This document shows positions 36,000 to 58,319 of a stretch of 64,000 nt of DNA, piece after piece; position 1 is the first letter of the stretch; the number at the start of each line of letters is the position of its first letter. The notes under the pieces are model-generated. The model was given only the letters and a program-made list of their open reading frames with translations, did not search any database and was not told the DNA's origin. This DNA comes from an uncultured delta proteobacterium (GTDB lineage Bacteria; Desulfobacterota; Desulfomonilia; UBA1062), in the NCBI GenBank assembly GCA_963785235.1, contig CAWAUM010000005.1:561143-625142 (forward strand). Direction: 5' to 3'. The position numbers and the translations under genes were made by a program.

Positions 36000-36202
36000 A
36001 GTTTTTCCCCCTCACATAATTTTTGGTTCGCTTGCAGTAGCTAGAAAATTACTATTCTTAGTGAGTACCATAAAATAAAGATAACGTCCATAGCCTTACA
36101 AAAGACTTTCCATGCATTTGACTTGACATCTTAACTCTGAGGTCATATTCTTCCAGCATTAAATGTATTTATGTATCCCTTTCAAGGAGTTAGTTGGGAA
36201 AC

Positions 36203-36877
36203 ATGGCAAAAACATCAGATAAAAGAAGAGAAGCGACAAAGGAAAAGATCATTGAGGCTGCCTGTGAGCTTTTCAGCAAATACGGATATCATAACACCCA
36301 GGTCATGGACATCGTCAAGGCTGTGGGCATGTCTGCCGGCACCTTTTATAACCACTTCAAAGACAAGCGTGATCTATTCGAGCATATCACCATAGAAAGC
36401 CTGGAGACCTTGCGTGTTACGGTCAAGAACCTCCGTGACCCCGTAGACATCTGGAACCCCGAGGCAAGGGCCATTATCCTCCAAGCGACATTCAACGCTG
36501 TTTTTGACTATGTTGACAGCAATCCCCAGCAGATACTCATGCTCCTGCGCGTCAGCTTCGGCGTGGATGAGGAGCTGGACAGCAGTGTATGGGATTACTT
36601 CCGGGGCTTTGCCCAGGACGCAGGTGAAGATATCCAGCGCTGGAGTGATGAGGGGGTCATCGAGGGAATAGACCCCATGCTCTTCGGAACTGCTGCCAGT
36701 GGTATGACCCTTCAATTGGTCCATGCGTATCTTGTTGAGAAGAGGCTCACGCGCGAGCAGATCATTCCAAACCTTATCAAGATGATCCTGGCCATGTTTG
36801 AGGCTTATCTGACCGAAGATGGAAGGAAGGCCCTGGAAATCACACGGCAGCAGAACGCCAATGCCTCTTTAGCTTAA
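36203..36877 (+). CDS. TetR-family regulator 1
   Basis: IIEAACELF...GMSAGTFYNHFKDK HTH. Confidence 0.93.
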   Translation: MAKTSDKRREATKEKIIEAACELFSKYGYHNTQVMDIVKAVGMSAGTFYNHFKDKRDLFEHITIESLETLRVTVKNLRDPVDIWNPEARAIILQATFNAVFDYVDSNPQQILMLLRVSFGVDEELDSSVWDYFRGFAQDAGEDIQRWSDEGVIEGIDPMLFGTAASGMTLQLVHAYLVEKRLTREQIIPNLIKMILAMFEAYLTEDGRKALEITRQQNANASLA

Positions 36878-37204: not shown

Positions 37205-38446
37205 ATGAGCAGGAGTGTGGATGACCTTTTTGTGTATCCGGGGCAGGCAATTGATGAAGAAAGCGCCAGCGTAATCCGCCTTGTCAGGCAGTGGGCTGAC
37301 AAAGAGATCATCTCCAAGCGGATGGAATACCGGGAGAACTACGACAAGCTCTTCGAAGAAAAAAGAAAGAAGCTTAACCTTGACATTGGCCTCCAGAAAC
37401 TTGTTATACCTGCGGATCTCGGTGGTTTTGGGTGGAACAGCCTTTCCAATGTACCGGGGATGCTCTCCATCCTTACCGAGATCGGCAGGGCCGATGCTGC
37501 ACTCGGTGTGCTCTCTGCAGCAACATACACTGCACTTGCCATGATCGGCATGGAACACCGCCCTAACAAGAAGCTTGCCTCTGCAATTGCCCTTACTTAT
37601 TCCGGCAGTACTATCAGAACCCCCTGCCCTATTCTTCCCGGGCCCGGTATTGCAGGTACCACGCATCCATTATTCAAAGGCAGGGCAATCCTTGCCGAGG
37701 CAAAGGAAGCAAAGGATGGATATATCATCAGTGGCACCAGCCTCAGGCCTCTGTTTGCCGGCGCCATGGCCGATCTCTACTGTGTCGTGTGTGACGGAAA
37801 AAAGGGCAAGCCCTGCATCGCCTTTGTCCCGGCGGATGCACCAGGGGTAACACGGAACTCACCGCTTCTGACAACCGGTCTGAATGCCTGCATAAACACA
37901 GATGTTACCTTCCATGAAGTTAAAGTCCCCAGGGATAACGTCATGGAAGAAGACGGCCTTGTAGAGGAGTTCTATATCTGGCTCAACCTGTTCCTGGGCG
38001 GTGTAAGCGTTGGTGCTGCTCTTAACTTCTTCGAGCTGATCTGTGACTGGGGAGATACACGGGTAATCAAGGGCGGCACCTCCCTGAAGGAAAATCCCCT
38101 GTGCGCATCAGTACTGGCAGATGTTGCTGAGGAGATTGCAGTGGCTAAGCTGCTGCTCTTCGACCTTGCGCGGATCATTTCCAGGCCGGAAGATATGTCA
38201 GCCGGCAGCATAACAAGGACCTTCACCTTTGCCGAGATGATTGGAAGCCGGGCTCAACAGGGCATTCTTCGTGCCATGAACCGCGGCCTGGAGCTCATGG
38301 GTTCGGCCGGCTACTCCAAGGAGTGGCACGTGGAAAAACACTGGAGGGACGTGAAGACCATACAGTCCGTACTCTGCGGCGTCGGAGCCGAGGCCCCGGT
38401 GAAGATGGACACTGCCCGATTCTTTTACAACTGCTCTGAGATCTAG
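37205..38446 (+). CDS. Acyl-CoA dehydrogenase-like protein (divergent subunit)
   Basis: EIGRAD, ELMGSAGYSKEWHVEKHWRDVK; lacks the TEP motif. Confidence 0.85.
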   Translation: MSRSVDDLFVYPGQAIDEESASVIRLVRQWADKEIISKRMEYRENYDKLFEEKRKKLNLDIGLQKLVIPADLGGFGWNSLSNVPGMLSILTEIGRADAALGVLSAATYTALAMIGMEHRPNKKLASAIALTYSGSTIRTPCPILPGPGIAGTTHPLFKGRAILAEAKEAKDGYIISGTSLRPLFAGAMADLYCVVCDGKKGKPCIAFVPADAPGVTRNSPLLTTGLNACINTDVTFHEVKVPRDNVMEEDGLVEEFYIWLNLFLGGVSVGAALNFFELICDWGDTRVIKGGTSLKENPLCASVLADVAEEIAVAKLLLFDLARIISRPEDMSAGSITRTFTFAEMIGSRAQQGILRAMNRGLELMGSAGYSKEWHVEKHWRDVKTIQSVLCGVGAEAPVKMDTARFFYNCSEI

Positions 38447-38456
38447 GGAGGAAATC

Positions 38457-39733
38457 ATGAACCATTTTGATGAATTTTCACGCCCCGAGGAATACATATC
38501 CCCCTTTGACAAGCACTTCAGACGGGTCATCAGAAAAACCCTCGATGAATGCGTCATGCCCCATCGCCGCAAGTTCGACGAGGACTGGAAAGACCACCAC
38601 CTCATCGAACCGGCATTTGATAAGTTGATGGGCGAGATCGGCCTGCAGAAGGGCCTCTTTCCCCTGGAATACGGCGGGTGGGGATTGGCCAAGTCCGATT
38701 ATATCTTCAGGTTTGGATATCATGGCCTGCGAAGAACTGGGCAGGGCCGATACCGGCATGGCAGTAGCCCTTGGGGTAACCTTCTGGCCGCTGCTCGTCA
38801 TCATCGGTTGAACCCTATGTGAACGAGCGTCTCCTTGCCGAATTCGCGCCCATGTTCTGCAACACCAGAAAGGCGGTCTTTGCAGCCAATGCCATGACAG
38901 AACCCCAGGGCGGGGCTGATATTGAAAACCTTGGCCTGCTGGGGGGCAGGACCATCCGCACCACGGCCCGGCTTGAAGGTGATGAGTGGGTGATCAACGG
39001 CCACAAGCTCTGGCCCACCAACTCGGGCGGAGTGTCCAAGCTCTTCGGCGTTCCATGTACAACCAAGCTTGGCTCCAGCGACCCTAAGGATTTTGCCTTT
39101 ATCTTTGTGCCTGCCGACCTGCCGGGTGTTACCCAGGGCGGGCCCTATGAAAAGGCGGGCATGGCTGCGGACAAGAACGGCGACATCTGGTTCGAGGATG
39201 TACGGGTCCCCAGCTGGTACCGAGCCCACGGACCGGGAAAGGATGCCGAGGCCTTCTACCAGCTCATTTCCTTCGGACAGGTCATGAGCATGGCCTTCCT
39301 CACCGGCGCCATGCTGAACCTGTATGAGCGGCTCTATGAATTTGTGTCCACGCGCACCTACAATAACCGTCCGCTCAAGGAAAACGACGCCATCGCCGCC
39401 ATTATCGGCCGCATTGCAGGCGATATCGATATCTGCAGGATCCTGGGATATGAGGCGGCCATGATCGGAGACCGCAGGAACAAGCCATATGGCAGACCCC
39501 TTGTCTCGGAAGACCTGGTGGGAAGAATCCGTAACATGAAAGACTTCGTGTCCGACCGTGCAGTGGATTGCTTCGGCAAGGCCATGGATGTGCTGGGCCT
39601 TTATGGGGCTGACCGCGATTGGGACATTGAAAAGCACTGGCGGGATATCAAGATTATACAACTATGGATGGGCGGCAAGCAGCTCTGCCAGATGGAGTCT
39701 GCCCGTTATTTCTTCAACTGCAAAACGTTGTAA
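38457..39733 (+). CDS. Acyl-CoA dehydrogenase with two apparent frameshifts (~38710, ~38805)
   Basis: EELGRADTG lies in an intermediate frame; AMTEPQGGAD, INGHKLW, EKHWRDIK in the last frame. Confidence 0.85.
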
Positions 39734-39743
39734 GGGAGCGGTC

Positions 39744-40175
39744 ATGGAAGAAAGATCGAACATGGGTTATATCGAAACCAGGAGCCGTATCTTAGATGAG
39801 CTGCTTGAAAAGACGGCCTTCAAGGATAGCCTGCGCCTCTTTCTGAAAAACATCGACCCGAACAGCTGCGTTGAACTCGTACGCACATTGCTTGGCAAGG
39901 ATATCGAGGTCCCACTGGCCTTGACAGGGGCCCTGCCTGTTATTGCAAACTGCTTCATCAGGGCAGGTCATGAGCTCATCGTCCAGGTCCGGGATAAATT
40001 CTCGCCTGAGCTGCTTGCCAGCTTAGTAGAATCACTCCTGGACGAGATCGACAAGGATACACTGGCACAGCTGATCGCAGAAAGCAGGGCACTGGGCAAT
40101 GATCTGGCCCCGGTCTTCCTTGCAGCATGGAAGGTGGTCGAACACAAGACAGCCCAGTCCCGGGAGGACGTATAA
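39744..40175 (+). CDS. Helical hypothetical protein
   Basis: RBS, translationally coupled; similar to the next gene (F.D.LR..L...DP......RTL.G.D.EV). Confidence 0.75.
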   Translation: MEERSNMGYIETRSRILDELLEKTAFKDSLRLFLKNIDPNSCVELVRTLLGKDIEVPLALTGALPVIANCFIRAGHELIVQVRDKFSPELLASLVESLLDEIDKDTLAQLIAESRALGNDLAPVFLAAWKVVEHKTAQSREDV

Positions 40176-40825
40176 TGCAGAGCGAACCTTTTATCCAGCA
40201 CAACTCCGGCATCATAAAAGCCCTCATGCGTTCACCACTGTTCAAGGACATCCTCAGGACAAACCTGAACGAGATGGACCCGAAATCAGGCGGCTCTGCA
40301 ATCAGGACTCTCATGGGCGAAGACCCGGAGGTATTCTTCGGCCTCGTCAGCTCGCTGCCGACGTTTATAAACAACCTCATGAAGGCCTCTACCGAACTCG
40401 CCATCCAGCTTAAAGACAAGTATCCACCCGAGATGCTCAAATCATTCCTCATGAGCCTGGCCGAGGATATCGACAAGGATGCAGCCAGACAATGCGGCAA
40501 GGCATGGACGGAGCTTCTCTCTTCCCTGTGGGGTGCATCACCTGAGATCAGGCAGGCTGCAACAGGTTTCATCCTCTCTTCGGGCCCCAAGATAAAGGCA
40601 GGGGCCATCAACGGCCTTGCACGGTTCGTCAACACAGTAACCCGTAGCAATCCGCAGACCTTCAGCACCTTCATCGCTTCAGTGCTCAGGAACATCGATG
40701 GCCCGGAGGTCAGCAAGGCAACCCTTACCCTGACCGGGGCATTCCTTGACCAGAAGTGGCATCTCGCCTCGTGGGTATGGCAGCTCGTAAAAGGCAGGGT
40801 TCGCAAAAGATTGAACAAGCTGTAG
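40175..40825 (+). CDS. Helical hypothetical protein, paralog of the previous gene
   Basis: TAATG overlap; shared K..PE.L.S...SL...IDKD motif. Confidence 0.75.
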   Translation: MQSEPFIQHNSGIIKALMRSPLFKDILRTNLNEMDPKSGGSAIRTLMGEDPEVFFGLVSSLPTFINNLMKASTELAIQLKDKYPPEMLKSFLMSLAEDIDKDAARQCGKAWTELLSSLWGASPEIRQAATGFILSSGPKIKAGAINGLARFVNTVTRSNPQTFSTFIASVLRNIDGPEVSKATLTLTGAFLDQKWHLASWVWQLVKGRVRKRLNKL

Positions 40826-40910
40826 GAGTGGCTTTAGCCGCGATGGAGAAAATCACAGAGACGGCTTAAAGCTGCCGCCTTTACCGATCGCGCCTGAAGG
40901 CGCTCCTACA
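40821..40910. repeat. GTAG-family REP doublet (REPIN-like)
   Basis: TGTAGGAGTGGCTTTAGCCGCGAT and inverted ATCGCGCCTGAAGGCGCTCCTACA, 20/24 match. Confidence 0.8.
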
Positions 40911-40953
40911 CAATAAAGAGTGATCGGCGCAGCAAAAAGTGATCGGCGAGGAA

Positions 40954-41628
40954 ATGAAAAAGATGGCTAGTCTTATAGAGAAAAAACGACAGTACACACG
41001 GGACATGATCATCGAGGCGGCTGAGGAGCTTTTCAGCCAGCACGGATACCACAACACCCAGATCATGGACATCGTCAAGTCCGTGGGCATGTCGGCCGGA
41101 ACATTCTATAATTACTTCAAGGATAAGCGAGACCTGTTCGAGCAGATCACCAGCCATAACCTGGAGGAACTCCGCTTCCGCATCAAAAAACTCAGGGAGC
41201 CGGTAAACATCTGGGACCATGGTGACAGGGTGGACAAGCTCAACCAGAGCTATGGCGCTTACTTCGACTACATAACCACACACCGCCAGCAGTTTCTCAT
41301 GGTGCTCCGCGGCAGCTTCGGTGTGGACGAAGAAATGGACAACACCATCTGGAAACATTACAGCGACATCGCCTTGGACCTTGCCGAAGACATTCAGAAC
41401 TGGCTGGATATGGGCGTCATAGAAGGCGTCGATCCGGTTACCATGGCCTATGCCGTGGTGGGCATGACCATGCATCTCGGCCATAGCTTCCTCATGGAGG
41501 AAAAATTCACCCGTGAAAAGGCGATTGCTACCCTGACCACCATGAGCCATCTCATGTTCGAAACCCATATGACCCAGGCAGGAAGAAAGGCCCTTGAAGA
41601 TCTGCAGAAAAACAAAACGGAGGTTTAA
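40954..41628 (+). CDS. TetR-family regulator 2, close paralog of regulator 1
   Basis: GYHNTQIMDIVKSVGMSAGTFYNYFKDKRDLFE almost identical to 36203-36877. Confidence 0.93.
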   Translation: MKKMASLIEKKRQYTRDMIIEAAEELFSQHGYHNTQIMDIVKSVGMSAGTFYNYFKDKRDLFEQITSHNLEELRFRIKKLREPVNIWDHGDRVDKLNQSYGAYFDYITTHRQQFLMVLRGSFGVDEEMDNTIWKHYSDIALDLAEDIQNWLDMGVIEGVDPVTMAYAVVGMTMHLGHSFLMEEKFTREKAIATLTTMSHLMFETHMTQAGRKALEDLQKNKTEV

Positions 41629-41631
41629 GGG

Positions 41632-42864
41632 ATGAAGAACACTGACCATCAGGCGGCCTGCAATCAGGCCCTGGCCCGCATCATCGGCAGGAGCATAAGA
41701 TCGTCGGGCTCCAGGACATTGATTGCCGAGATTGTGAAGGAATCCATCGGCAACTGGGCCAAAGACAGCAATTTGAAGAAAAAGATTGCTGCCCCTGCCC
41801 TGTGGGTAGCCTCCAGGCTGGGTAAACCGGGAACGGACGGACAGGATGCAGGCACGGCAGCCGATATGGGGACCCTCCTGACCGAACTGGCCCGGAAGGT
41901 CAATGTAGCTCGAAAAGTTGACCAGCCATGCCAGACCGGTACGAATGGAGCATCCATCGACGCCTTCCTCAGAAACACCGATTTTGGCGAGATCCTTGAG
42001 ATGGTGGAAGGGGCCGATCCCCATGTGATCGAGGGCATCCGCACCTTCAATGAACAGCTCTGGAAGTACCCGGCAAAGGTAGGTTCACTGGCTATGGCCG
42101 CCAATGCGCTCCTCAACACCTCCATCAAAGCCACCTGTGAAGCCCTGAAGCCCATCGACGAACAGTTCAGCCCGGATCTCCTGGCAGACCTCCTGCTTTC
42201 GACCGTGAGGGAAATCAAAGGAGCGAATGTGGCCATGCTCGTCAATACCGTGTGCGAGCTCATCAGGAGGATCCACACCGGCAGCCTCCGGCTGGGCAAA
42301 GGTGGCAGGCCGCTATTTCAGATGTATCTCGCCGGCCTCCTGAATGACTGCTTCCCCGTGATAAAACCCGACCTTCTGAAAAAGGCCCGGATCGCGCTGG
42401 CCGAGGACACAGAGGCCTATGCCAATGCCCTGTCGGATGCAATGAAAGCCAATCCCTCCATTCTCCTGTCTATCCTGTCCTCCATGGGCGCGGTCAGAAG
42501 CTCCCGGGCACGGGCACTGTCCAGGAAGCTCAGGTCCGTGGAAGAGGCCGATCAGGCTGGACTGGATGCTGCCGTGTCCGAAAGCGTGTCGGATTTCGAC
42601 ACCTATGAGGTTGCCGGGCTGATAAATACCGCATGCAGCGTTCTGGAAAGGATCCATCAGGCCAGGCCGGATATCATGACCAGCCTGGCAGGCGGAATCG
42701 TGGATTCTGTGGATACGGAACAGGTAAAACGGATCTGCGCATGGCTGATCCCGGACCTGGTGGATGCCATCAGACCCCTTGTCCCGGTCATCATGCCGGA
42801 AATCATCAGAGGGCTTCATGATCTAACCAGCCCCCTGTACGCTGCCGCAGGGGGTGAGCAATGA
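41632..42864 (+). CDS. Large helical hypothetical protein
   Basis: 410 aa, amphipathic helical units, coupled to the next gene. Confidence 0.75.
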   Translation: MKNTDHQAACNQALARIIGRSIRSSGSRTLIAEIVKESIGNWAKDSNLKKKIAAPALWVASRLGKPGTDGQDAGTAADMGTLLTELARKVNVARKVDQPCQTGTNGASIDAFLRNTDFGEILEMVEGADPHVIEGIRTFNEQLWKYPAKVGSLAMAANALLNTSIKATCEALKPIDEQFSPDLLADLLLSTVREIKGANVAMLVNTVCELIRRIHTGSLRLGKGGRPLFQMYLAGLLNDCFPVIKPDLLKKARIALAEDTEAYANALSDAMKANPSILLSILSSMGAVRSSRARALSRKLRSVEEADQAGLDAAVSESVSDFDTYEVAGLINTACSVLERIHQARPDIMTSLAGGIVDSVDTEQVKRICAWLIPDLVDAIRPLVPVIMPEIIRGLHDLTSPLYAAAGGEQ

Positions 42865-43994
42865 TCGATGTCATGAAAGAGATTGCAGGCACCCTGCACA
42901 ATAGTTTTGTCAGAGAGTGGAAAGAGGCCGGCGGCAAGGTCGTGGGATACTCGTGCACCTTCATCCCCGAGGAAATCCTCCATGCGGCAGGGGTTCTGCC
43001 CTTCAGGCTGCGCGGTATCGGAACGACTTCGCTGTCCATCGGGGATTCCTACTATGGAGCGGTGAACTGCAGCGTGCCCAAGTGCATCCTACAGCTTGCC
43101 GGCCAGGGATCATACAATTTCCTCGACGGCTCCATCATCACGAACGGCTGCGACTCCATGCGCAGGCTCGATGAGTGCTGGCGGACCGCAGGCAAGGACT
43201 ATCCCGGCACATTGCCGGACTACCACGAATATTTCGCTGTCCCCCACAAGTCGGTGGATTACAGTGTGGATTTTTATGAAGAAGAGCTGAGAAGAATGAT
43301 TGGAACCCTTGAAAATCATTTCAAGGTCAAAATTTCAGACCAGGCCCTGAAAAAGTCCATCAAACTCTACAATACCGTGAGGAAGACACTCCGGAAGCTC
43401 GACGAGCTGAGATACCGCAGTGATGTGGCCATCTCGGGCGAAGACGCCATGGCTGTACTCATCGCTGCCCACGCGATCCCACCAGAGCGGTTCATGGGCT
43501 TGCTCGAAGAGATCATAGAAAAGCTCAAAGCAGCTACCTCCCTGTCGGATGGGAAGAAACGCCTCATGCTCATGGGGAGCGCCAGCGATGACCTTGATTT
43601 CATCAGGGTCATCGAGGATTCGGGGGCCATCGTGGTGGCGGATACCGTGTGCTTCGGTTCGCGCACATACAGCTCCCTTGTGGATGAGAAAGCAGACCCG
43701 GTCCACGCGTTATCTGCCCACTACCTGAACAACAGCATCTGCCCCCGCATGCTTGGGTATTACAAGAGCAGAAATGCATTCGTCACCGCTTTGATCAAGA
43801 AGGCAAAGGTTGACGGCGTCATCCTGCAGAACGTGCGCTTCTGCGACCTCCACGGCTCGGAAAACAGCATCTTCGAGCGGGACTTCGAGGCTCAAGGAAT
43901 CCCCTGTCTGAAGCTGGAACGGGAGTACGGACCCCTTTCCGAGACCGGCAGGATAAGGATGCGCATCGATGCGTTCATGGAGAGAATATCGTGA
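42861..43994 (+). CDS. 2-hydroxyacyl-CoA dehydratase / benzoyl-CoA reductase family Fe-S subunit (beta/C-like)
   Basis: GYSCTFIPEEILHAAG, NGCDSMRR, CFGSR, CPRM, FCDLH, RIDAFME. Confidence 0.9.
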   Translation: MIDVMKEIAGTLHNSFVREWKEAGGKVVGYSCTFIPEEILHAAGVLPFRLRGIGTTSLSIGDSYYGAVNCSVPKCILQLAGQGSYNFLDGSIITNGCDSMRRLDECWRTAGKDYPGTLPDYHEYFAVPHKSVDYSVDFYEEELRRMIGTLENHFKVKISDQALKKSIKLYNTVRKTLRKLDELRYRSDVAISGEDAMAVLIAAHAIPPERFMGLLEEIIEKLKAATSLSDGKKRLMLMGSASDDLDFIRVIEDSGAIVVADTVCFGSRTYSSLVDEKADPVHALSAHYLNNSICPRMLGYYKSRNAFVTALIKKAKVDGVILQNVRFCDLHGSENSIFERDFEAQGIPCLKLEREYGPLSETGRIRMRIDAFMERIS

Positions 43995-44073
43995 GGACTG
44001 ATGAAATTGCACGACCCCCTCTTCCCAATCCTCTCCCTCAAGGGCCGAGGAAGTTTAGATCCAGGAGGTTTTC

Positions 44074-44313
44074 ATGTGTGAAGTAAATAAGATCGAGGTT
44101 GCAATGGAAGTGCTGGGCGAAATTGCCATGGACGACAGCAGGATGCTGGCGGAAAGACAGCGGGCCATCGATGCGCTCACCCTCTTCAAGGAATCATTGA
44201 AGATGCTGGAGCACATCGCCCGCAAAACTGAACTGGACGTCCTGAAGCAGCGTGCCGGGCTCTATATCCAGCGCATAAAAGCCGGGGCGCATATCAGCAT
44301 GTCGGGAGTGTGA
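44074..44313 (+). CDS. Small hypothetical protein
   Basis: 79 aa, AGGAGG RBS. Confidence 0.65.
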   Translation: MCEVNKIEVAMEVLGEIAMDDSRMLAERQRAIDALTLFKESLKMLEHIARKTELDVLKQRAGLYIQRIKAGAHISMSGV

Positions 44314-44326
44314 GAAAGGGGTCGCC

Positions 44327-45733
44327 ATGAAAAGAGAAACGAAAGAATATAACTTCGACTGGATGCTCTGGTCCATGCTCGTCTCGGGGAGCAAGGTCAT
44401 GGACGGGACGAGGAAGGAATACGATGCCCTTCTCCGTCTCATACCCCATTTCAGGGACGTCATCGATCTCCTCTTAAAGCAGGGGGAGACCGGCAAGCTC
44501 TTCATGAAGATGAGCGCAGAGTATCTCGATGACATCAAGACCGTGCACGAGAAGGGGAAGAAGCTCTGCTTCGGCACATTCGTTGCCTCCAAAGCCTTGT
44601 ACTATGCCTTTGAGAACGTGGTGCCTGTATGGGCCGAGATCATGACCGTGCTGGCCACCATGATTTTCAGGAAGGGAACAGCTGAATACATGGACTTCTG
44701 CTGCGAGGCAGGGTTCACCGAGACATCGTGCTCCGCCCAGCGCGGATCGGTAGGCGCCTACCTGGCAGGCCTTGCGGAACGTCCGGATTTCCTCATCTGT
44801 GGGGCGTCCGGCATCTGTGATACCAATGCCAATGCCATGCAGTTCATGTCCTCATACCTCGATATCCCGCTCTTCCAGCTCACCTTCCCCTCAAAGCTGA
44901 CTGGCAGGGATATCGACGAATACCAGCGCAAGGATTACCGGGCATTGATCTCCTTTATAGAAGAGCAGACAGGCTCTCGCCTGGACGAGAACAGACTCAG
45001 GTCAGTGCTTGAGGAGCACAAGCGGCAGGACACGATCATCAGCGAGATCTATGACCTGGTGAGGCTCAAGCCCTGCCCCATGCCGCCCATTTTCAACCTG
45101 TTCCTGTATGCAGGGAAGCTCCATATGCCGGGGAGAAAATCCTTCACAACCGTGCTCGAATCCATGCTGGCAGACGTGCGCAGGAATGCACAGGCAGGCA
45201 GGGCCGGGACCTCTTCCGGAAAGGAACGGGCACGGCTCCTCATGTGCTACATAGACCATTACACCACGGACGGCCGCTTCTGGCAATGGGTCGACGCTCA
45301 GGATATCAGCCTCATGCCCACGCTCATCTTCACCTTCTTCAACAAGGGCGTAAACTACGCTGAAGGCCGAGAAGACCAGACCTATGAGATCGATACCTCC
45401 ACCATGGACACCATGCTCGACTCGCTGGCGGACATTAACTCGCACATGCCCATGGTCAAGCAGCTCAGGGGCCCGTATGACGCCGCAGGCCAATGGCGGG
45501 AGGACCTTTTCTTCATGACCAGGATCATGCAGCCCGATCTGGCGGTCTACCTCGGCAGCATGGGATGCCGTAACAGTTATGGGGTAAACAAGCTTATCGA
45601 GCGCGATGCCGAACGATCCGGCCTGCCCACCCTGCTCCTGTTCGCCGATGCCTTTGACGACAGGGTCGCCTCCTGGGATTTCTGCATGGACAAGATGAAC
45701 GAGTTCATGCACGTGAGGGGGATCCTTGCATGA
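44327..45733 (+). CDS. 2-hydroxyacyl-CoA dehydratase / benzoyl-CoA reductase family Fe-S subunit (alpha/B-like)
   Basis: ETSCSAQRG, ICDTN, GCRNS, LPTL...DAFDDR. Confidence 0.87.
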   Translation: MKRETKEYNFDWMLWSMLVSGSKVMDGTRKEYDALLRLIPHFRDVIDLLLKQGETGKLFMKMSAEYLDDIKTVHEKGKKLCFGTFVASKALYYAFENVVPVWAEIMTVLATMIFRKGTAEYMDFCCEAGFTETSCSAQRGSVGAYLAGLAERPDFLICGASGICDTNANAMQFMSSYLDIPLFQLTFPSKLTGRDIDEYQRKDYRALISFIEEQTGSRLDENRLRSVLEEHKRQDTIISEIYDLVRLKPCPMPPIFNLFLYAGKLHMPGRKSFTTVLESMLADVRRNAQAGRAGTSSGKERARLLMCYIDHYTTDGRFWQWVDAQDISLMPTLIFTFFNKGVNYAEGREDQTYEIDTSTMDTMLDSLADINSHMPMVKQLRGPYDAAGQWREDLFFMTRIMQPDLAVYLGSMGCRNSYGVNKLIERDAERSGLPTLLLFADAFDDRVASWDFCMDKMNEFMHVRGILA

Positions 45734-46512
45734 TAACAGCTGGCTGCGATGTCGGTTCACTTACCACCAAGGCAGTTATCCTGAACGAGTCTCGGATACT
45801 CGGCCAGGCACTCATCAAGTCGACCTTCGATCCTGAAATATCGGCTGCCGAGGTTATGGAAAAAGCTCTTGCTTCAGCCCGGCTCACCATGGGCGATATC
45901 GGTTTCTGCGTGGGAACGGGATACGGCAGGGAGCGTATCGGCTTCGTAAAGAAGACCTTTTCCGAGATCACCTGCCATGCAAAGGGCGTCCACTTCCTGC
46001 ACCCGTCCATCCGCACCATCATCGACGTGGGCGGCCAGGACTGCAAGGCAATTCGCCTGGATGCAAAAGGCGAGATCGAGAAATTCATCACCAACGACAA
46101 GTGCGCCTCCGGCACCGGCAGGTTCCTGGAGGTCATGGCTAAGCTCCTGGGCGTGGACCTTGAAGACCTGGGCAGAATTTCCGGCCAGGCAGCAGCCCCC
46201 ATCACCCTTGCGGGGGCATGTACGGTATGGGCCCAGGCCGAGGTAGTAGTGCACCTCAACACAGGCAGGCCCAAGGCCGATGTGGCCGCCGGCATCAACG
46301 AGGCCATGGCATCACGTATCGCCATCCTGGCCAAGGCCGTGGGGATCGAGAAGGATGTATGCATGTCAGGCGGCGTGGCAAAGAATGCGGGGGTGATGGC
46401 AGCCATGGAAAAGCAGCTGGACCTCCCCATACGCAGGCTCAAGGTTGACCCCCAGCTGATGGGAGCCCTGGGCGCTGCGGTGATCGCCCGAGAAAAGGCA
46501 GGGGGAAAATGA
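45730..46512 (+). CDS. ASKHA ATPase activator (HgdC/BcrAD-like) 1
   Basis: GCDVGSLTTK, TGYGR, EITCHAKG, DVGGQD, NDKCASGTGRFLE, CTVWA, GGVAKN. Confidence 0.93.
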   Translation: MITAGCDVGSLTTKAVILNESRILGQALIKSTFDPEISAAEVMEKALASARLTMGDIGFCVGTGYGRERIGFVKKTFSEITCHAKGVHFLHPSIRTIIDVGGQDCKAIRLDAKGEIEKFITNDKCASGTGRFLEVMAKLLGVDLEDLGRISGQAAAPITLAGACTVWAQAEVVVHLNTGRPKADVAAGINEAMASRIAILAKAVGIEKDVCMSGGVAKNAGVMAAMEKQLDLPIRRLKVDPQLMGALGAAVIAREKAGGK

Positions 46513-47298
46513 TGCTGACAGCAGGATGCGACATCGGATCTTTGAGCGCCAAGGCAGTGATCATGGACGGTGAAAATATTATCGCCTCCCATGTTATTTT
46601 TGCAAAACCCGAACCGGAAGAGTCTGCCCATGCGGTCATGAGCAGCGCCCTGGACAAGGCCGGGCTGTCCATGGAAGACATCACCTATTGTGTGGGAACC
46701 GGCTATGGCAGGAATGCTATCCCCTTTGCCCAGGTAGCGGAGTCGGAGATCACCTGCCATGGGAAAGGCGGCCCAGTGGCTCAATCCCCAGGTCCGCATG
46801 GTGATAGACATAGGCGGCCAGGACGCCAAGGCCATCAGGGTCGATGAAACCGGCAAGGTGGTCCGCTATGCCTACAACGACCGGTGCGCATCCGGTACGG
46901 GCAGGTTCCTGGAGGTCATGGCGGGAGCCATGGGCATAAAGATCGATGCCATGGGCGAACTGTCTTCCCAGGCCAAGAACCCGGTACTGCTCTCGAACCA
47001 GTGCGTGGTCTTCGCCGAGACCGAAATCATCTCGCTCCTCAATGCTGGGAGGGACCTGCCCGACATCGTGGGTGGATTGCACCGGGCCCTGGCCCACCGG
47101 GTGGCATCCCTGGCCAGGAGCATCGACCTTGAAAGCGGAATTACCATGACCGGCGGCGTGGCAAAGAACCAGGGCATGTTCTTGGCGCTGGAAGAGGCAC
47201 TCGGGATCAAGCTGATATCCCTGGATACGGACCCCCAGATCATCGGCGCCGTGGGGGCGGCACTCATGGCCCGGCAGGCTGTTATGGAGAAGGCATAA
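46509..47298 (+). CDS. ASKHA ATPase activator 2 with a frameshift near 46768
   Basis: GCDIGS, TGYGR, EITCHGKG, then in the next frame DIGGQD, NDRCASGTGRFLE, CVVFA. Confidence 0.88.
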
Positions 47299-47305
47299 AA
47301 ACGCT

Positions 47306-48043
47306 ATGGAGCTCTTTACGGACACCATCTCCGGCGTACGCACCTTGCTTGCACAGACACCCGGCAGGAGGTCATGGCCTGCTGCCGGCGCATCAGCTTG
47401 GCCTGCCGGCGGCGGAAGAAACATCGTGATGAAGGAAGACATGGGACTTGAGTTGGGCAGTCCCCAGATGGAATCCCTGTCCTGCCTCCTGTGGACCCAT
47501 GACCAGGCTGCAATCGAAGACGGGAGAATCACCCTGGTGGGACCGGATTTTCCGGAAAGCCAGGGCATGAGCCTCCCCTTCGGCAAGGTGGTGCTGGCCG
47601 CAGTGGATGGCTTCACCGAAGACAATGCCTATGATCAGCACAAGGACCTGGATTTTCTCCGGTACAGCATCGACCTGAAGGGCTTCATGATGAGATCCGT
47701 TTCCCAGTACATGAGGGAGTGGTGCAGGGTCAGCACGGTGGCCATCCGGGACGGCTTTTCCGTCCGGACCCTCGGCTCGGAGCTCATCCGGCTCTTTCAC
47801 ACCAAGCCCTTTGTGAAGGCCGTGGAGGTGATCTATCTCACCTCCAGTCCGGACGATGTGGTGAGGCTCAGGGAGATCACCTCCCCTGCGGAGAGGATTA
47901 TCGGAGCCATGAACAAGATGGCAGCAGAGATGGATTTCGAATGTTCCTCCTGTGACTACCAGGATGTATGCGATGAGGCCGATGGACTCAAGGGCATGAG
48001 GGATAAGCTTATGGAAAAATCAAAAGAGACTCTGCATGGCTGA
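47306..48043 (+). CDS. Acetyl-CoA synthase (AcsB/CdhC) middle-domain-like protein with C-terminal Cys motif
   Basis: ELGSP, EDGRITLVGPD, LPFG, GFMMR, WCRVS..AI..GF resemble the ACS middle domain; ends CSSCDYQDVC; too short for the A-cluster domain. Confidence 0.7.
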   Translation: MELFTDTISGVRTLLAQTPGRRSWPAAGASAWPAGGGRNIVMKEDMGLELGSPQMESLSCLLWTHDQAAIEDGRITLVGPDFPESQGMSLPFGKVVLAAVDGFTEDNAYDQHKDLDFLRYSIDLKGFMMRSVSQYMREWCRVSTVAIRDGFSVRTLGSELIRLFHTKPFVKAVEVIYLTSSPDDVVRLREITSPAERIIGAMNKMAAEMDFECSSCDYQDVCDEADGLKGMRDKLMEKSKETLHG

Positions 48044-49205
48044 CACAACAAAGGATATCTTCAGAGCGCTGAAGACCCTTGCTGGAGGGATTCCCCCCTC
48101 GCCCGCGTTGCTGCCGGATTTCCTTCTGGATGCTGCAGGGGGTTTATGCAGTGCCAGGGGGCGCATCAGCAGCCTTACAAATTTCGAGAGGATGCTGGTA
48201 ACCCTGCGGCACAAGGAGCCTGACCATGTCCCGTGCTGCCCCATAATTTGCGGCGCAGGCAGACGGCTTATCGGAAACACCTACGCGGAATTCTGCGCCG
48301 ACCCCATAATAGCTGCCGAGTCCTTCGTGGCCGGCTTCAATCTCATCGGCGGTGACGGTATAGTCGCGCTGGTTGACCTCTCAATAGAGGCCGCTGATTT
48401 CGGCCAGAGGCTTATTTACCCGGACAACTCCACCGCACATCCCGACTACGCAAACCCCGTGATCAAGAATATCCAAGGTTACCGGAAGCTCAAGCCAATA
48501 GATTTCAATCATGCCATACGCATGCAGGGGTATGCAAAAGCGCTGTCCATAATGGTTCGCCGGATAGGCTTGAAGGGATTTGTAGCAGGCTTTCTCTTCG
48601 GCCCGCTGGGTGTGCTCAACATGATGCGGGGGACACAGGAACTCTTCAAGGACTGTGTTACTAATCCGGAAGATGTCATGGCAGCGTGTGAGACCATCAC
48701 GGGTGCGCTCATTGAATTTGCAGAAGCGCAATGCGACGCCGGGGTGGTTATGGTTGTAATCGACACCCTCTTTGCATCATGGAACGGGTTGTCCAAGGAG
48801 CTCTGGGAAAAGATCGAGGGGCCGTTTGCACGGGAAATCGCCTCGGCAGTCAGAAGAAAAGGTTGCCTGGTTGGGGTGCACAACTGCGGTCACGGGATAT
48901 ATTTCGATGCACAGATTCGAAGCATGGAACCCTGTGCAATAAGCTTCGCACACCTCCCGGACGACTGTTCGAGCCGTAAGGAGCTGAAGAAGCGCTATGG
49001 AGACCACATCGTGCTCATCGGCATGATTGACACCCCGCTGCTGACCCGCGGCACCCCTTACGATGTCATGACCGAATGCAGGAAACAGATCGATGACCTC
49101 GCTCCCGGCGGGGGTTATATCCTTTCACCCGGCTGCGAGTTCCCCCAGAATGCCCCCCTTGAAAATGCCTATGCCATGGTCAAGGCGGCAGAGCTGTATG
49201 GATGA
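48036..49205 (+). CDS. MtaA/CmuA-type (uroporphyrinogen decarboxylase fold) corrinoid methyltransferase
   Basis: DLSIEAADFG, GPL, VHNCG (HxC), YILSPGCE zinc-ligand pattern. Confidence 0.87.
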   Translation: MADTTKDIFRALKTLAGGIPPSPALLPDFLLDAAGGLCSARGRISSLTNFERMLVTLRHKEPDHVPCCPIICGAGRRLIGNTYAEFCADPIIAAESFVAGFNLIGGDGIVALVDLSIEAADFGQRLIYPDNSTAHPDYANPVIKNIQGYRKLKPIDFNHAIRMQGYAKALSIMVRRIGLKGFVAGFLFGPLGVLNMMRGTQELFKDCVTNPEDVMAACETITGALIEFAEAQCDAGVVMVVIDTLFASWNGLSKELWEKIEGPFAREIASAVRRKGCLVGVHNCGHGIYFDAQIRSMEPCAISFAHLPDDCSSRKELKKRYGDHIVLIGMIDTPLLTRGTPYDVMTECRKQIDDLAPGGGYILSPGCEFPQNAPLENAYAMVKAAELYG

Positions 49206-49876
49206 AAAGAGGGACCCGGATGAGTAAGAGAGAAGTTGGACTTATGGAAAAAATTAAAGCAGCGGTAGCTGCTTACCAGGTGGATGAAACCGTGGCGCTG
49301 ACGACCAGGGCAATGGATACCGGTCTTTCCATGAAAGAGGTGCGCCACGCCATCCTTGATGGTCTCAACACTCTCAGAAAGACTTTAATGTCGAATCATA
49401 CCTCATTGCCCGAATTCCTCCTGTGTATTGACGCAGCAACACAGGGTCTGGCAAAACTCTCTGAATTCGGAGACACCGGAGATAAGGAGACTATGACCGT
49501 TGTTATAGGAGTTGTCGAGGGTGACCCTCACGATCTGGGCAAGAGCATAATTTCGGGGGTCTACAGGGCGTGCGGCTACAGGGTAGTTGACCTGGGTGTG
49601 CAGGTAAAGACAGTTGAGTTCGAGCGTGCGGTTGTAGAAAACAAGGCCGATATCCTGGCCCTGTCGGCCATGATGTCCACTACCATGGCCTGTATGCCGG
49701 ACATAATCAGAACGATAAAACAGACGTGCCCCGAGACGGTTATCATGGTAGGCGGAGCCCCCCTGGACCGGCAACTGGCAGAAAAATACGGGGCGGATGG
49801 TTATGCGCAATCAGCGATCACTGTCCTCGAGGAGACAGAAACCGCCCTGGGAAAAAACACGAGAGGTATTGCATGA
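49202..49876 (+). CDS. Corrinoid (B12-binding) protein
   Basis: GDPHDLGK (DxHxxG), DLG, LSAMMSTT, MVGGAP, GADGY. Confidence 0.93.
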   Translation: MKRGTRMSKREVGLMEKIKAAVAAYQVDETVALTTRAMDTGLSMKEVRHAILDGLNTLRKTLMSNHTSLPEFLLCIDAATQGLAKLSEFGDTGDKETMTVVIGVVEGDPHDLGKSIISGVYRACGYRVVDLGVQVKTVEFERAVVENKADILALSAMMSTTMACMPDIIRTIKQTCPETVIMVGGAPLDRQLAEKYGADGYAQSAITVLEETETALGKNTRGIA

Positions 49877-50643
49877 CTGATACAAAGATTATCGCGCTGT
49901 GCGGCAAGGGGGGTGTCGGCAAGACCTCTATCTCGGCCCTCATGGTGAAGCTGCTGGCCTGCGGGAACGGGCGGAAGATCCTCGCCATAGATGCGGATCC
50001 GGCAGTGGGCCTGGCATCGGCCCTGGGCATTACAGTGAAAAAAACCGTAGACGACATCAGGAAGGGACTCATTGCAGACATCCGGAAAGGCGAGCCCCAG
50101 GGGAGCAAGGAGACGCTCAAGCTCCTGGACTATGAGGTCTTTGATGCCCTCCATGAACGTGACGGATATGCCCTTCTTGCCATCGGCAGGCCCGAGGATG
50201 AAGGATGCTTCTGCAAGGTGAACAACCTCCTCAAGGACATCATAGGTGATCTGGCCGGCAGGTTCGACATCGTGCTCATCGATGGCGAGGCCGGCATCGA
50301 GCAAATCAACAGGCGGGTGATGAAGACCGTGGATTACCTGGTTCTGGTGTCGGACACCTCGGTCAAGGGACTTGGCGTTGCAAATACAATAGCGCACGTT
50401 GCGAACGAGAAGAAGGCAGTGGACTTCAAGAGCATGGGGCTCGTTCTCAACAGGGTGAGAAACCAGACAGAGGTGGACGACATCAGGCGCAGAACAGACC
50501 TTGAAATGTACGGATGGCTCGACGACGATGACCTGATCAGATCGTTCGACTTCAGAGGCGACCCGCTTACCGGCATGCCTGAAAACTCACCTGCGCTCTT
50601 AAAGGTTGCATACATCCTGGAGAAGATCGGATTAATGCCATGA
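49873..50643 (+). CDS. cooC: CooC/AcsF-type nickel-insertion ATPase
   Basis: GKGGVGKT, IDADP, EGCFC (CxC), DGEAGIEQ. Confidence 0.87.
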   Translation: MTDTKIIALCGKGGVGKTSISALMVKLLACGNGRKILAIDADPAVGLASALGITVKKTVDDIRKGLIADIRKGEPQGSKETLKLLDYEVFDALHERDGYALLAIGRPEDEGCFCKVNNLLKDIIGDLAGRFDIVLIDGEAGIEQINRRVMKTVDYLVLVSDTSVKGLGVANTIAHVANEKKAVDFKSMGLVLNRVRNQTEVDDIRRRTDLEMYGWLDDDDLIRSFDFRGDPLTGMPENSPALLKVAYILEKIGLMP

Positions 50644-50685
50644 AAACGTCACATTGCCCATCATCAATGCGCTTGAAAGGAGGGC

Positions 50686-51516
50686 TTGGGTGAGATGAAC
50701 ATGCTGCTGGTGTACTTCTCCCAGACCGGTAATACACGCAAGGTTGCCGAGTCCATGGCAGAGGCCTTTCGTGATAAAGGGCACACGGTCCGCACCCTGT
50801 CCATGAAGGAGGCTCAGCCTGCGGATATCCTGAGCTGTGATGTGCTGGGCATGGGAACGCCTTGTTTTGAAAGCCAGGCCCCCACGCCGGTCAAGGACTT
50901 TCTCACTGCCTTGCCTCCACTTTATGGCAAACCCGCCTTTGTCTTTGCCACCTCGGGCGGATCTCCCGGAAGGGTTCTCTACGACTTGGCACACATCATA
51001 CAGGGTAAAGGCGCATCGGTTCTCGCAGGTTTCATGGGGCGCGGCACGGTGCATCATCCTGCACCCTGCCTGATCGGCCGCATGCCTGGGCGCCCTAGTC
51101 ACGAAGATCTGGAACGTGCCCACTCGTTCGCCCAGGCAGTGGACAGGCAACTGCAGGCCGGCGGTACAAGCGTTATACACGAAGGGGGAAAAGACCCCTT
51201 AAGCCTCAACTGGGGATTCTATGACCTGGTTTCCCTCATCGCGAAACCATACCTGCTGCGCATCCTCCTGCCTAAGCCCAAAATTGATCAGACCCTGTGC
51301 AATCAGTGCGGGATATGCGCCGACGAATGCCCGGTGCAGAGCATTACGCTGAATACCTTGCCGGTTCTGGATGGCCGGTGCATCCGGTGCTACCACTGCC
51401 AGAACATCTGCCCTCAGAAAGCCATAAGCTCGTCCTGGCTGCTGGGCAACGTCGTGATTTTTTCGCTTTACAATACGCTCTTTGCCCGCCTCTTTGGCGA
51501 TGTTAAACCATCTTGA
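50686..51516 (+). CDS. Flavodoxin-ferredoxin fusion (EFR1-like); 3' end may be cut at the junction
   Basis: YFSQTGNT, CNQCGICADECP, CIRCYHCQNICP. Confidence 0.88.
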   Translation: MGEMNMLLVYFSQTGNTRKVAESMAEAFRDKGHTVRTLSMKEAQPADILSCDVLGMGTPCFESQAPTPVKDFLTALPPLYGKPAFVFATSGGSPGRVLYDLAHIIQGKGASVLAGFMGRGTVHHPAPCLIGRMPGRPSHEDLERAHSFAQAVDRQLQAGGTSVIHEGGKDPLSLNWGFYDLVSLIAKPYLLRILLPKPKIDQTLCNQCGICADECPVQSITLNTLPVLDGRCIRCYHCQNICPQKAISSSWLLGNVVIFSLYNTLFARLFGDVKPS

Positions 51517-52157
51517 GCAGCAACTTGTATTCGGTGCCCAGCTGCGGGTTGCGCGCCATCATGTTGCCGGCCACCGAGGCGCCGGTGGCGATCACCTGCA
51601 CCTGGCCGCGAGACGAAGGCCGAGACGGTGGCGTTGTTGTCCTCGAAGCGCTTGATGTCGGCGCTGGCCGGCGCGACCTTGGTGAGCTCCATGTCCTCGA
51701 TGGCGCCGCGCGTCACGCCGACGATCTTGCCGGCCAGGTCGGCGAAGCGGCTTGATGCGGCAGCGCCTTGGCGGCGAACACCGCCTGGAAGAAGGGCGAG
51801 TAGGCGGCGGTGAAGTCGATCACCTTCTCGCGCTCGGGGTTCTTGCCCAGCGTGGAGATGACCAGGTCGGCCTTCTTGGTCTGCAGGTAGGGGATGCGGT
51901 TGGCGCTGGTCACCGGCACCAGCTCGACCTTGACGCCCAGCTTGGCGGCGATGTAGTTGGCCATGTCGATGTCCAGGCCCTGCGGCTTCAGGTCGGTGCC
52001 GACGAAGCCGTAGGGCGGGAAGTCGGTCGGGATGGCGATGGCTGACCGGCTTCCTGGCCATCACGTTCTTCAGCGAATCGTCGGACTTGGCGGCCGAGGT
52101 TGCCAGGCTGAAGGCGGCCACCAGGCCGGCCAGGGCGGAGAGGAGCTTGGATGTCAT
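51510..52157 (-). CDS. Amino-acid ABC substrate-binding protein, frameshifted and 3' truncated
   Basis: PVTSANRIPYLQTKKADLVISTLGKNPEREKVIDF; GVTRGAIED in another frame. Confidence 0.75.
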
Positions 52158-52277
52158 CGCAGGGGCACCGAGGGGAGTTGGAAGTGCCGCCAGATCCGCA
52201 AGTCGCATGCCACCCTGCGCGGCGTGCATCGCGCCGGCCGGCGCAAGGCTGGGTGCGTTGATCGCGGCGTCGCCGCG

Positions 52278-53037
52278 TCAGGTGCGGGGCGTGGTCGCCG
52301 CGCGCCGCCCGGCCTTGGGCGGCGCGGCGGCGGGTGTGGCCACCCGGAAAATGGCCTCGAAGTCGATCTCGCCGGCCCCGGCGGCCGGCGGCTGGATGCC
52401 CTGCTCGACATGGTCCAGGTGCTCCAGCATCAACCGTTCGGCGCGTCTCACGTCGCCCGCTTCGATCGCCGCCACGATGTCGGCATGCTCGTGCTCGGGG
52501 CAGGCGCTGCTGGCCAGCGCGTCGTACTGCGCGATGGCCAGGCTGGTGAGCGCCACCAGCCGGCGCAGACTGTCGCTGAACAGCCGGTTGTCGGTGATCT
52601 CGGCCAGCCGCACGTGGAAGTCGCCGGTCAGGCGCGCCAGCAGCGCGCGGTAGTTGGCCTCGCGCGCGGCCGCCTCGCTCTGCAGGTGGGCCCGCATCCA
52701 CCGCCAGCGCCTGGCCGCCGAACTGGGTGCTGAGCTGCGCCGCCACCGCGCGTTCCAGCGCGCGCCGCACCGCGAACACGTCGCGCAGATCGCGCGGCGT
52801 CGGGCTGGCCACGAACGCGCCGCGGTTGGCGTGCAGCTCGATCACCAGTTCCTGGCTGAGCCGCTGCAGCACCTCGCGGATGCGCGGCGGCTGGCGAGGA
52901 TGCGCCAGCCGCTGCTCGCTGAGCTTGGTGCCCGGTGCCAGCCGGCGCTCGCTGATCGCGGCGAAGATGCGCTCGTAGATGTCCTGGTTGCTCAGGCGCG
53001 GGGTCGCGATGGTGGTCGGTCGGTCAGCCATGGTCAT
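52278..53037 (-). CDS. GntR/FCD regulator, frameshifted
   Basis: LAPGTKLSE, IREVL, NRGAFVA, FHVRLA, EHADIV. Confidence 0.8.
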
Positions 53038-55514: not shown

Positions 55515-55519
55515 GCGGC

Positions 55520-56394: not shown

Positions 56395-56455
56395 CGAGGC
56401 GCCCTCGGTGGAACTCGGGACAACCGGACTGGCGCCCGGCCGTCAAGGCGGAGCC

Positions 56456-56858: not shown

Positions 56859-56945
56859 ACCGTGGAGTTCGCGGCGGCCGTGGATGCGCAGCGGAGGAGC
56901 ATCGCCGCCACCGCCAAGGCCCTGGGGATCCAGCCGACGCGATAG
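56856..56945 (+). CDS. C-terminal fragment of a probable TctC/Bug substrate-binding protein
   Basis: STVEFAAAVDAQRRSIAATAKALGIQPTR*. Confidence 0.45.
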   Translation, partial: STVEFAAAVDAQRRSIAATAKALGIQPTR

Positions 56946-56960
56946 GGGGGAAAACGTCTG

Positions 56961-57040: not shown

Positions 57041-57046
57041 GTGGTG

Positions 57047-58306: not shown

Positions 58307-58319
58307 TGTGTGCGGCATT

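Follow-up and report, generated by a model that had tools for sequence, protein, structure and literature searches.

The window analysed here is a stretch of 64,000 nucleotides (nt) from an uncultured delta proteobacterium (assembly GCA_963785235.1, contig CAWAUM010000005.1, hereafter C5), and the system of interest is the operon at its positions 37205-51516. This operon is one of three copies in its genome and encodes, judging from its protein families, a predicted four-subunit, ATP-driven iron-sulfur (Fe-S) enzyme of the benzoyl-CoA-reductase (BCR) / 2-hydroxyacyl-CoA-dehydratase (HAD) superfamily, together with a fragment of acetyl-CoA synthase (ACS), termed mini-ACS, and a CooC-type ATPase. 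A methyltransferase and a corrinoid protein, encoded between these last two, are not part of the conserved core; they form a two-gene cassette that was inserted once, in one sublineage, exactly at the start codon of the CooC gene, and that is under purifying selection. The inserted pair is regarded as a lineage-specific, retained add-on to a benzoyl-CoA-reductase-like system, for which a biochemical link to the reductase is plausible; within the inserted sublineage, a functional link of the pair with the operon is possible.

Conservation of the core operon

A scan of one genome per species yielded 37 reference loci, all in metagenome-assembled genomes of Desulfobacterota type. The core unit that recurs in these loci comprises two acyl-CoA dehydrogenases (ACADs), three helical paralogues, a TetR-family regulator, a BzdN/BzdO-like subunit pair, two ASKHA ATPases, mini-ACS and the CooC-type ATPase, and because it recurs in independent assemblies the arrangement is not a product of chance. 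An ATPase gene adjoins mini-ACS on the upstream side in 32 of the 35 loci with room for one. Downstream, among the 36 loci offering at least 900 nt beyond mini-ACS, CooC follows next in 30 and the methyltransferase in two; three of the other four run directly into a second HGD-like module, and one has the ATPases first. The BzdN-like subunit and the helical protein of 410 amino acids (aa) are each present in 31 of the 37 loci, ACAD1 lies upstream in 14, and a second, more distant HGD-like module occurs downstream in 25. Within the class, mini-ACS was detected in 38 of 51 genomes of one family and in none of the 70 genomes of the other.

The methyltransferase and corrinoid genes stand between mini-ACS and CooC in only two of the 37 loci (L005 and L008). 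A preliminary description of this DNA had joined a methyl-transfer half, with CooC as a member, to the reductase half. As a general module this union does not hold, the two halves being joined in 2/37 reference loci and in 3/39 mini-ACS genomes of the class, and CooC belongs to the reductase/mini-ACS core. The same genome (G000) illustrates the variation within itself through three paralogous operons, on C5 (the window), C7 and C13, with the pair present in the C5 and C7 operons and absent from the C13 operon. The two further whole-operon copies lie at C7:272119-288691, where several frame breaks occur, and at C13:220943-232586.

Among syntroph-like Desulfobacterota living in sediments, wetlands and digesters the core operon is widespread, and it encodes a relative of enzymes that carry out the most reducing chemistry in biology. 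In the literature covered, which did not extend to subscription papers, no ACS fragment or CooC was found described with a BCR/HAD-type enzyme and no corrinoid pair inside an operon of that type. This agrees with the preliminary view that the system is undescribed, and the ACS-fragment and CooC accessories of a reductase-like system are without a precedent found there.

Insertion at the CooC start codon and gene conversion

The history of the inserted pair is recorded in its junctions. In uninserted operons the stop codon of mini-ACS overlaps the start of CooC (ATGGCTGA), and CooC begins MADTK. In inserted operons the methyltransferase starts at the mini-ACS stop overlap with MADT(T)K, and CooC restarts with MTDTK over the corrinoid stop codon (ATGA). 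This MADT(T)K / MTDTK junction is common to the window, L005 and the metagenome locus L087, with MVDTK in L008, and free-standing methyltransferases have other N-termini. The shared junction and N-termini indicate one insertion at the CooC start codon, with approximately 15 nt duplicated.

A methyltransferase tree of 35 rows, from which the short rows L102, L103 and L104 were left out, places the six inserted methyltransferases in one clade with a Shimodaira-Hasegawa-like approximate likelihood ratio (SH-aLRT) support of 100; its stem measures 0.44 changes per site and its inner branches at most 0.08. The idea that the long stem must reflect accelerated change was considered and rejected, as L104, 87% identical and in another context, suggests unsampled free relatives. 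Among inserted loci, the ratio of nonsynonymous to synonymous substitution rates (dN/dS) lies between 0.11 and 0.22 in the methyltransferase and between 0.19 and 0.27 in the corrinoid protein.

Compared per 100 nt, the window and the C7 operon are 55-88% identical up to position 48017 and 91-100% identical over 48018-51516, after which there is no similarity. The inserted operons of genomes G105 and G107 are orthologous to the C7 operon, with 84-91% nucleotide identity. From this identity pattern and orthology it follows that the pair, CooC and the flavodoxin-ferredoxin gene reached the window operon by a gene conversion of about 3.5 kb. The window operon is a mosaic, with an ACAD part 91% identical to G107 and a centre closest to L002 (segments of 74, 76 and 81%, and a CooC piece of 75%). 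The case is an example of a cassette that was acquired at the start codon of an operon gene and afterwards passed from one paralogous operon to another by gene conversion.

The possibility that this arrangement is an artefact, either an assembly chimera of paralogous operons or an operon in decay, was weighed and is very improbable. It could draw on three frameshifts in two genes, on the loss of the second HGD-like module downstream, on the mosaic composition itself (G107-like ACAD part, L002-like centre, C7-like 3' part), on the DNA of about 0.70 guanine-plus-cytosine (GC) content past the flavodoxin-ferredoxin gene with the contig end 12.5 kb further, and on position 51516, which no public contig among those listed bridges. 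Opposed to it are the same gene order in the independent assemblies L005, L008, L087 and L088 and the low dN/dS of the inserted genes. A public contig of 757 nt runs from the paralogue-specific mini-ACS into the methyltransferase gene with a single mismatch, which argues against a chimera at that join. The break in ATPase 2 is probably an assembly indel, because a contig from public run X1, identical otherwise, is one base shorter at 46767, where the break lies; run X1 may be the source sample of the assembly, and ATPase 2 is a single frame in locus L001. Public sequencing runs were compared as contigs, in which stretches without cover carry no meaning.

Gene organization of the operon

Listing of open reading frames (ORFs) and scans against Pfam and NCBIfam place all genes of 37205-51516 in one orientation on the + strand, and every gene class named in the preliminary description was recovered there. 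Its inventory proved incomplete, as five genes (TetR, the three helical proteins and a 79-aa ORF) had been omitted. It had also called the genes mostly overlapping; overlap is not general, there being gaps of 113 nt 5' of the TetR gene and 332 nt between the two HGD genes. The features are as follows.

37205-38446, + strand: ACAD1, a diverged acyl-CoA dehydrogenase of 413 aa (Pfam Acyl-CoA_dh_2/_1/_N, E 4e-10 to 2e-5)
38457-39733, + strand: ACAD2, an acyl-CoA dehydrogenase (Pfam), here in three frames with two frameshifts near 38690-38820
39744-40175, + strand: helical paralogue A, 143 aa, with no Pfam or NCBIfam match
40175-40825, + strand: helical paralogue B, 216 aa, with no family
40939-41628, + strand: TetR-family regulator (Pfam TetR_N, E 2e-18), in the same position in many loci
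41632-42864, + strand: helical paralogue C, 410 aa, with no Pfam match
42861-43994, + strand: BzdN/HadC-like Fe-S subunit, 377 aa (Pfam HGD-D, PF06050, E 2e-84)
44074-44313, + strand: conserved small ORF, 79 aa, between the two Fe-S subunit genes (tblastn)
44327-45733, + strand: very diverged BzdO/HadB-like subunit, 468 aa (Pfam HGD-D, PF06050, E 1e-38)
45730-46512, + strand: ASKHA ATPase 1 (BcrAD/BadFG; Pfam E 1e-56; TIGR00241 230 bits against a cut-off of 125)
46509-47298, + strand: ASKHA ATPase 2 (BcrAD/BadFG; Pfam/NCBIfam), with one frameshift near 46750-46770
47306-48043, + strand: mini-ACS, 245 aa, the ACS middle domain with the first three cubane cysteines of the A-cluster (Pfam PF03598, CdhC)
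47950-51516, no strand: tract matching the C7 operon (91-100% identity per 100 nt from 48018), from gene conversion or duplication
48036-49205, + strand: MtaA-like methyltransferase of the URO-D family, inserted gene 1 (Pfam URO-D, E 4e-56)
49202-49876, + strand: corrinoid protein with DPHDLG, inserted gene 2 (Pfam B12-binding, PF02310, E 2e-24)
49873-50643, + strand: CooC/AcsF-type ATPase, with its true start at 49873, overlapping the corrinoid gene stop (ATGA)
50686-51516, + strand: flavodoxin-ferredoxin fusion (NCBIfam NF038196, EFR1 family, 108 against 75 bits; Pfam Fer4 and Flavodoxin)

The three helical proteins are mutually related (A versus B 41% identity, E 5e-25; C versus A 7e-8; C versus B 2e-5), and neither Pfam at E up to 5 nor the protein atlas assigned them to a family. 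With tblastn the 79-aa ORF is matched in 19 of 37 loci and again in the two other operon copies of the genome, a conservation that makes it likely to be an unannotated small subunit. Over 18 loci the C-terminal part of ACAD2 (38819-39733) reaches a median identity of 89% (maximum 98%) and is far better conserved than its neighbours, mini-ACS and the BzdN-like subunit having medians of about 60%.

The predicted core enzyme

By its anatomy the core enzyme appears to be a reductase of Bzd type that falls outside every curated family. The BzdN-like subunit matches several structures in the PDB about equally well: HadC (6e-40), BzdN (3e-37), MbdN and the double-cubane protein (2e-30). Six cysteines are kept without exception in 30 of 30 orthologues, and all of them align with cysteines of BzdN (8s02_B). 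In BzdN six cysteines, given without residue numbers, bind an [8Fe-9S] cluster (PMC11971306). The BzdO-like subunit retains three cysteines (135, 164 and 414), invariant in 28 of 28 sequences. The same account describes a [4Fe-4S] cluster in BzdO bound by C95, C128, C380 and water (PMC11971306); the spacings are 29 and 250 in the operon subunit and 33 and 252 in BzdO, a comparison of spacing made with no direct alignment. The only PDB matches of this subunit are the double-cubane cluster protein (DCCP, 8e-8) and HadB (3e-7).

The curated NCBIfam cut-offs of both kinds of relative are missed, on the Bzd side by BzdN (142 versus 454 bits), BcrC (140 versus 421) and BzdQ (184 versus 380), and on the dehydratase side by HadB and HadC (158 versus 700 and 42 versus 750 bits). 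Two unlike ASKHA ATPase genes stand side by side, which fits the architecture of a reductase.

Mini-ACS and the CooC-type ATPase

The preliminary description had proposed that the 245-aa protein is related to ACS, and this is supported. Mini-ACS scores 47.8 bits against Pfam CdhC, with a cut-off of 24, and phmmer against the ACS chains of the PDB aligns it to CdhC 17-156 and to AcsB at about 326-471. Its AlphaFold model has a mean predicted local distance difference test (pLDDT) score of 78.6, and all 23 of its 23 Foldseek matches in the PDB at E<=0.001 are ACS chains. The cysteine motif, given earlier as CxxCx4C, is in fact CxxCx5C; its members C213, C216 and C222 align with the first three cysteines of the CxxCx8Cx9C cubane motif in the genome's own ACS, and the fourth is replaced by lysine. 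The protein ends approximately 25 residues past the third cysteine, before the Cys-Gly-Cys nickel site, and scores 40 versus 356 bits against the curated cdhC model. An extra cysteine, Cys140, is invariant in 15 of 15 sequences.

A word-index search collected 216 proteins of the mini-ACS family at E<=0.001, and an exhaustive search collected 163, 486 and 651 representatives at E<=1e-30, 1e-10 and 1e-3, respectively. The best 150 of the 651 representatives are all at most 308 aa long; a search for longer fused forms found none, which is weak evidence. No full ACS, carbon monoxide dehydrogenase (CODH) or RACo-type activator was matched in the window, in line with the preliminary description, whose similar statement on AcsCD was not covered by any search; the full ACS, CODH and RACo-type genes of the genome lie outside the window, at C5:270-300 kb, C1:434 kb and on C10.

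The CooC-type ATPase has its best PDB match in CooC1 (3kje, E 4e-15), with which its deviant P-loop and CxC motif align, and its cysteines C8, C110 and C112, which include the CxC, are invariant in 32 of 32 sequences. Mini-ACS and CooC most likely constitute a fixed accessory pair, a putative cluster- or metal-bearing adaptor and its maturase.

Identity and distribution of the methyltransferase-corrinoid pair

The methyltransferase finds its best PDB match in MtaA (4ay7, E 7.5e-14), with the HxC and a later cysteine aligned; the aligned HxC...C residues are the zinc ligands of MtaA. The curated models TIGR01463 and PRK06252 are missed (97 versus 235 and 105 versus 244 bits). The corrinoid protein scores 86 bits against PF02310, with a cut-off of 32, carries the DPHDLG form of the DxHxxG motif in 7 of 7 sequences, and misses the curated TIGR02370 (108 versus 215 bits).

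Across the class, 22 of 122 genomes contain a methyltransferase match at E<=1e-60, and identity exceeds 90% only in G000, G105 and G107. Fourteen other genomes of the family encode a methyltransferase 52-64% identical, always beside a corrinoid gene and away from reductase genes, with unrelated housekeeping genes such as enolase, GPAT and thiolase as neighbours; this neighbour survey scanned 39 of 100 listed ORFs, and some high-GC loci with wrong-strand frames were left out. A metagenome scan added 18 loci. L087 carries ATPase 2, mini-ACS, methyltransferase, corrinoid gene and CooC, and L088 the last three of these, while 15 of the 18 loci encode a methyltransferase 51-63% identical, 13 of them showing the corrinoid gene in a free-standing pair.

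A third gene of 230 aa lies 3' of the free pair in 10 of the 14 genome loci, and its profile matches the stand-alone MetH reactivation-domain protein 1j6r (E 1.8e-12). Of the 13 metagenome loci, 10 have this gene behind the pair, and two of the remaining three end at the corrinoid gene; the inserted cassette and the operon are without it. A loss specific to the insertion was considered and rejected, as the gene is equally missing beside the four free cassettes from the same genus and remote homologues occur in all five genomes tested. RACo-type (PF14574) matches were found only at C5:270 kb and C1:434 kb, outside the window.

Proposed function and competing explanations

The catalytic steps set out here are derived from protein families, and the anatomy and history of the operon from observation. 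With modest confidence, we consider it probable that the core is a Bzd-like, ATP-driven acyl-CoA reductase or dehydratase equipped with the mini-ACS/CooC pair, and that the inserted pair adds a methyl group to, or removes one from, the substrate in an O- or S-methylated form. The two unlike ASKHA ATPases would use ATP to push a low-potential electron, possibly supplied by the flavodoxin-ferredoxin, into the BzdN-like subunit, whose six-cysteine pattern resembles that of a double cubane. The electron would move on to the three-cysteine cluster of the BzdO-like subunit, where the acyl-CoA would be reduced or dehydrated by radical chemistry, and the two acyl-CoA dehydrogenases would handle adjoining steps. 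A zinc-dependent MtaA-like enzyme would shuttle methyl groups between the O- or S-methylated operon substrate and the Co(I) corrinoid protein, a step that would widen the range of compounds entering the pathway, and activators encoded at other sites of the genome would reactivate the corrinoid.

A number of observations weigh against this proposal. On the side of the enzyme, the BzdO-like subunit has no direct phmmer match to BzdO, the curated NCBIfam cut-offs are missed for BzdN, BcrC, HadB/C, the double-cubane protein, MtaA/CmuA and the corrinoid subfamily, and ACAD2 and ATPase 2 are frameshifted in the present assembly. On the side of the pair, its absence from 35 of 37 reference loci and from the C13 operon means that the core enzyme works without it, and it contains one methyltransferase only, whereas two are required by most corrinoid systems. 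Nor do the four same-genus free cassettes have an adjoining reactivation gene, and RACo and remote reactivation homologues exist in trans. The metagenome fragment L104:1-1106 encodes the 87%-identical methyltransferase with a different N-terminus and no mini-ACS upstream, where unrelated AT-rich DNA encodes a small protein; L104 may be a free relative of the inserted clade. Free and inserted copies never occur together in any of the 22 genomes with a match, an exclusivity that fits mere relocation as well as coupling.

Part of this evidence favours a different explanation, possible though clearly less probable, in which the pair is a passenger: an independent methyl-transfer system, for example of methyl-sulfur or methionine type, that relocated to a well-expressed operon with which it is biochemically unconnected. 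A homologous pair is free-standing among unrelated housekeeping genes in 14 of 14 other genomes of the family and is likewise found by itself in 13 metagenome loci, none of the 22 genomes with a match combines a free with an inserted copy, most core loci lack the pair, and its conversion into the window operon requires only homologous flanks. Against a mere passenger, the start/stop overlaps have been kept on both sides of the insertion, and purifying selection has maintained the pair in no fewer than three species-level genomes and in two metagenome contigs. Also telling against it are the long stem of the inserted clade, at 0.44 changes per site, and the present location of the pair in two different paralogous operons of one genome.

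A closer coupling was put forward in the preliminary description, in which the ASKHA module keeps the corrinoid as Co(I), or methyl-corrinoid methylates a CooC-matured metal site of mini-ACS, with ACS-like chemistry on an acyl-CoA; we judge this unlikely. In an equally improbable form, set in the lineage with the insertion, the corrinoid protein would pass a cobalt-bound methyl group to, or take it from, a CoA thioester held by mini-ACS at the CooC-matured site, or the ATP-driven low-potential electron module of the operon would maintain Co(I). Its appeal lies in the position of the pair exactly between an ACS-derived protein and a CooC-type ATPase, in the cysteine of mini-ACS equivalent to the one that bridges cubane and nickel in ACS, and in the inserted cassette being without the MetH-reactivation-like gene present 3' of the free pair in most genome and metagenome loci. 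Known corrinoid activators are, moreover, ASKHA-type ATPases. Several findings oppose it: mini-ACS lacks the Cys-Gly-Cys nickel ligands and the fourth cubane cysteine, and in 30 of 36 loci mini-ACS and CooC occur together with no corrinoid gene. The missing reactivation gene is no mark of the insertion, since the four free cassettes from the same genus are likewise without one next to them. At other sites the genome has two RACo-type loci and remote homologues of the reactivation domain, so that the corrinoid does not need the ATPases of the operon. When mini-ACS (alignment A1) and the corrinoid protein (A2) were predicted as a complex, the scores were 0.00 and 0.00, which count neither way. 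Taken as a whole, the interpretation of the preliminary description is partly supported.

The favoured reading, in which the pair acts on the operon substrate, would point to O- or S-methylated acids and so provide a handle on substrate identity. An interaction of the pair with mini-ACS would instead reveal what an ACS middle domain does without its nickel site, and a coupling of the corrinoid with mini-ACS or the electron module would bring corrinoid methyl transfer, ACS-type chemistry and radical chemistry of benzoyl-CoA-reductase type together in a new way. A corrinoid pair so rare and so precisely built in constitutes a natural experiment.

Flanking DNA

Downstream of the operon, window positions 51517-58500 have a GC content of 0.68-0.70, against a genome mean of 0.516 (standard deviation 0.045), which ranks the stretch within the highest 0.2% of 2-kb windows. 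Family matches in it are few, and it occupies the place of the second HGD-like module seen in C7, C13 and 25 of 37 loci. A tRNA-Leu(CAA) gene followed directly by a tyrosine integrase (58594-60067) looks like the edge of an integrated element, and the contig ends at window position 64000.

Upstream, positions 25951-32024 on the - strand encode a thiolase-like protein, an AMP-forming CoA ligase, an ACAD and two DUF2148 ferredoxin-domain proteins. Past this cluster lie an amino-acid-type ABC transporter and a second TetR gene (36194-36877). Positions 1-24000 have a low GC content of 0.39-0.46 and long gaps between ORFs of at least 150 aa, with an ORF of 1074 aa at 16634-19858 on the - strand.

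Comparison with known systems

The inserted pair resembles methyl-transfer systems of the MtaA/MtaC or MtsA/MtsB type, which likewise combine a URO-D-family methyltransferase, with the zinc positions aligned to MtaA, and a DxHxxG corrinoid protein. [quoted passage not shown] According to the same portion, these clusters likewise occur outside methanogens and have no H4folate methyltransferase alongside (PMC10418091). In contrast to all three of these systems, the operon pair has a single methyltransferase, lacks a Ram/RACE gene and lies inside a reductase operon. A counterpart of the stand-alone MetH reactivation protein (1j6r) is found only in the free cassettes and not in the operon.

With acetyl-CoA synthase (AcsB/CdhC), mini-ACS shares the fold and sequence of the middle domain (A2) and the first three cubane cysteine positions. 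It differs in lacking the N-terminal domain, the fourth cubane cysteine and the Cys-Gly-Cys site, in having its own extra Cys140, and in standing alone as a protein of 245 aa. The operon CooC shares the P-loop and CxC of the CooC/AcsF nickel-insertion ATPases, whereas its partner protein is without the known nickel site, and its identity to the two CooC genes beside the CODH/ACS genes of the genome is only 33-34%.

The closest architecture is that of the Bzd-type class I benzoyl-CoA reductase (BzdNOPQ; BzdNO structure 8S02), which likewise combines a pair of PF06050 subunits with two unlike ASKHA ATPase genes. Each of the six invariant cysteines of the N-like subunit of the operon aligns with a BzdN cysteine, and the other subunit has three invariant cysteines at a spacing similar to that of BzdO, although it is too diverged for a phmmer match. 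To this Bzd plan the operon adds mini-ACS, CooC, the three helical paralogues, the 79-aa ORF and the two ACADs, none of which was found described with BCRs in the literature covered. The 2-hydroxyacyl-CoA dehydratases (HadBC with HadI; 3o3m) belong to the same superfamily and share ATP-driven electron injection, and HadC is the best PDB match of the N-like subunit (6e-40); HadC is nevertheless without cysteine at two of the six invariant positions. The 2-hydroxyacyl-CoA dehydratases use a single activator, whereas the operon encodes two different ATPases.

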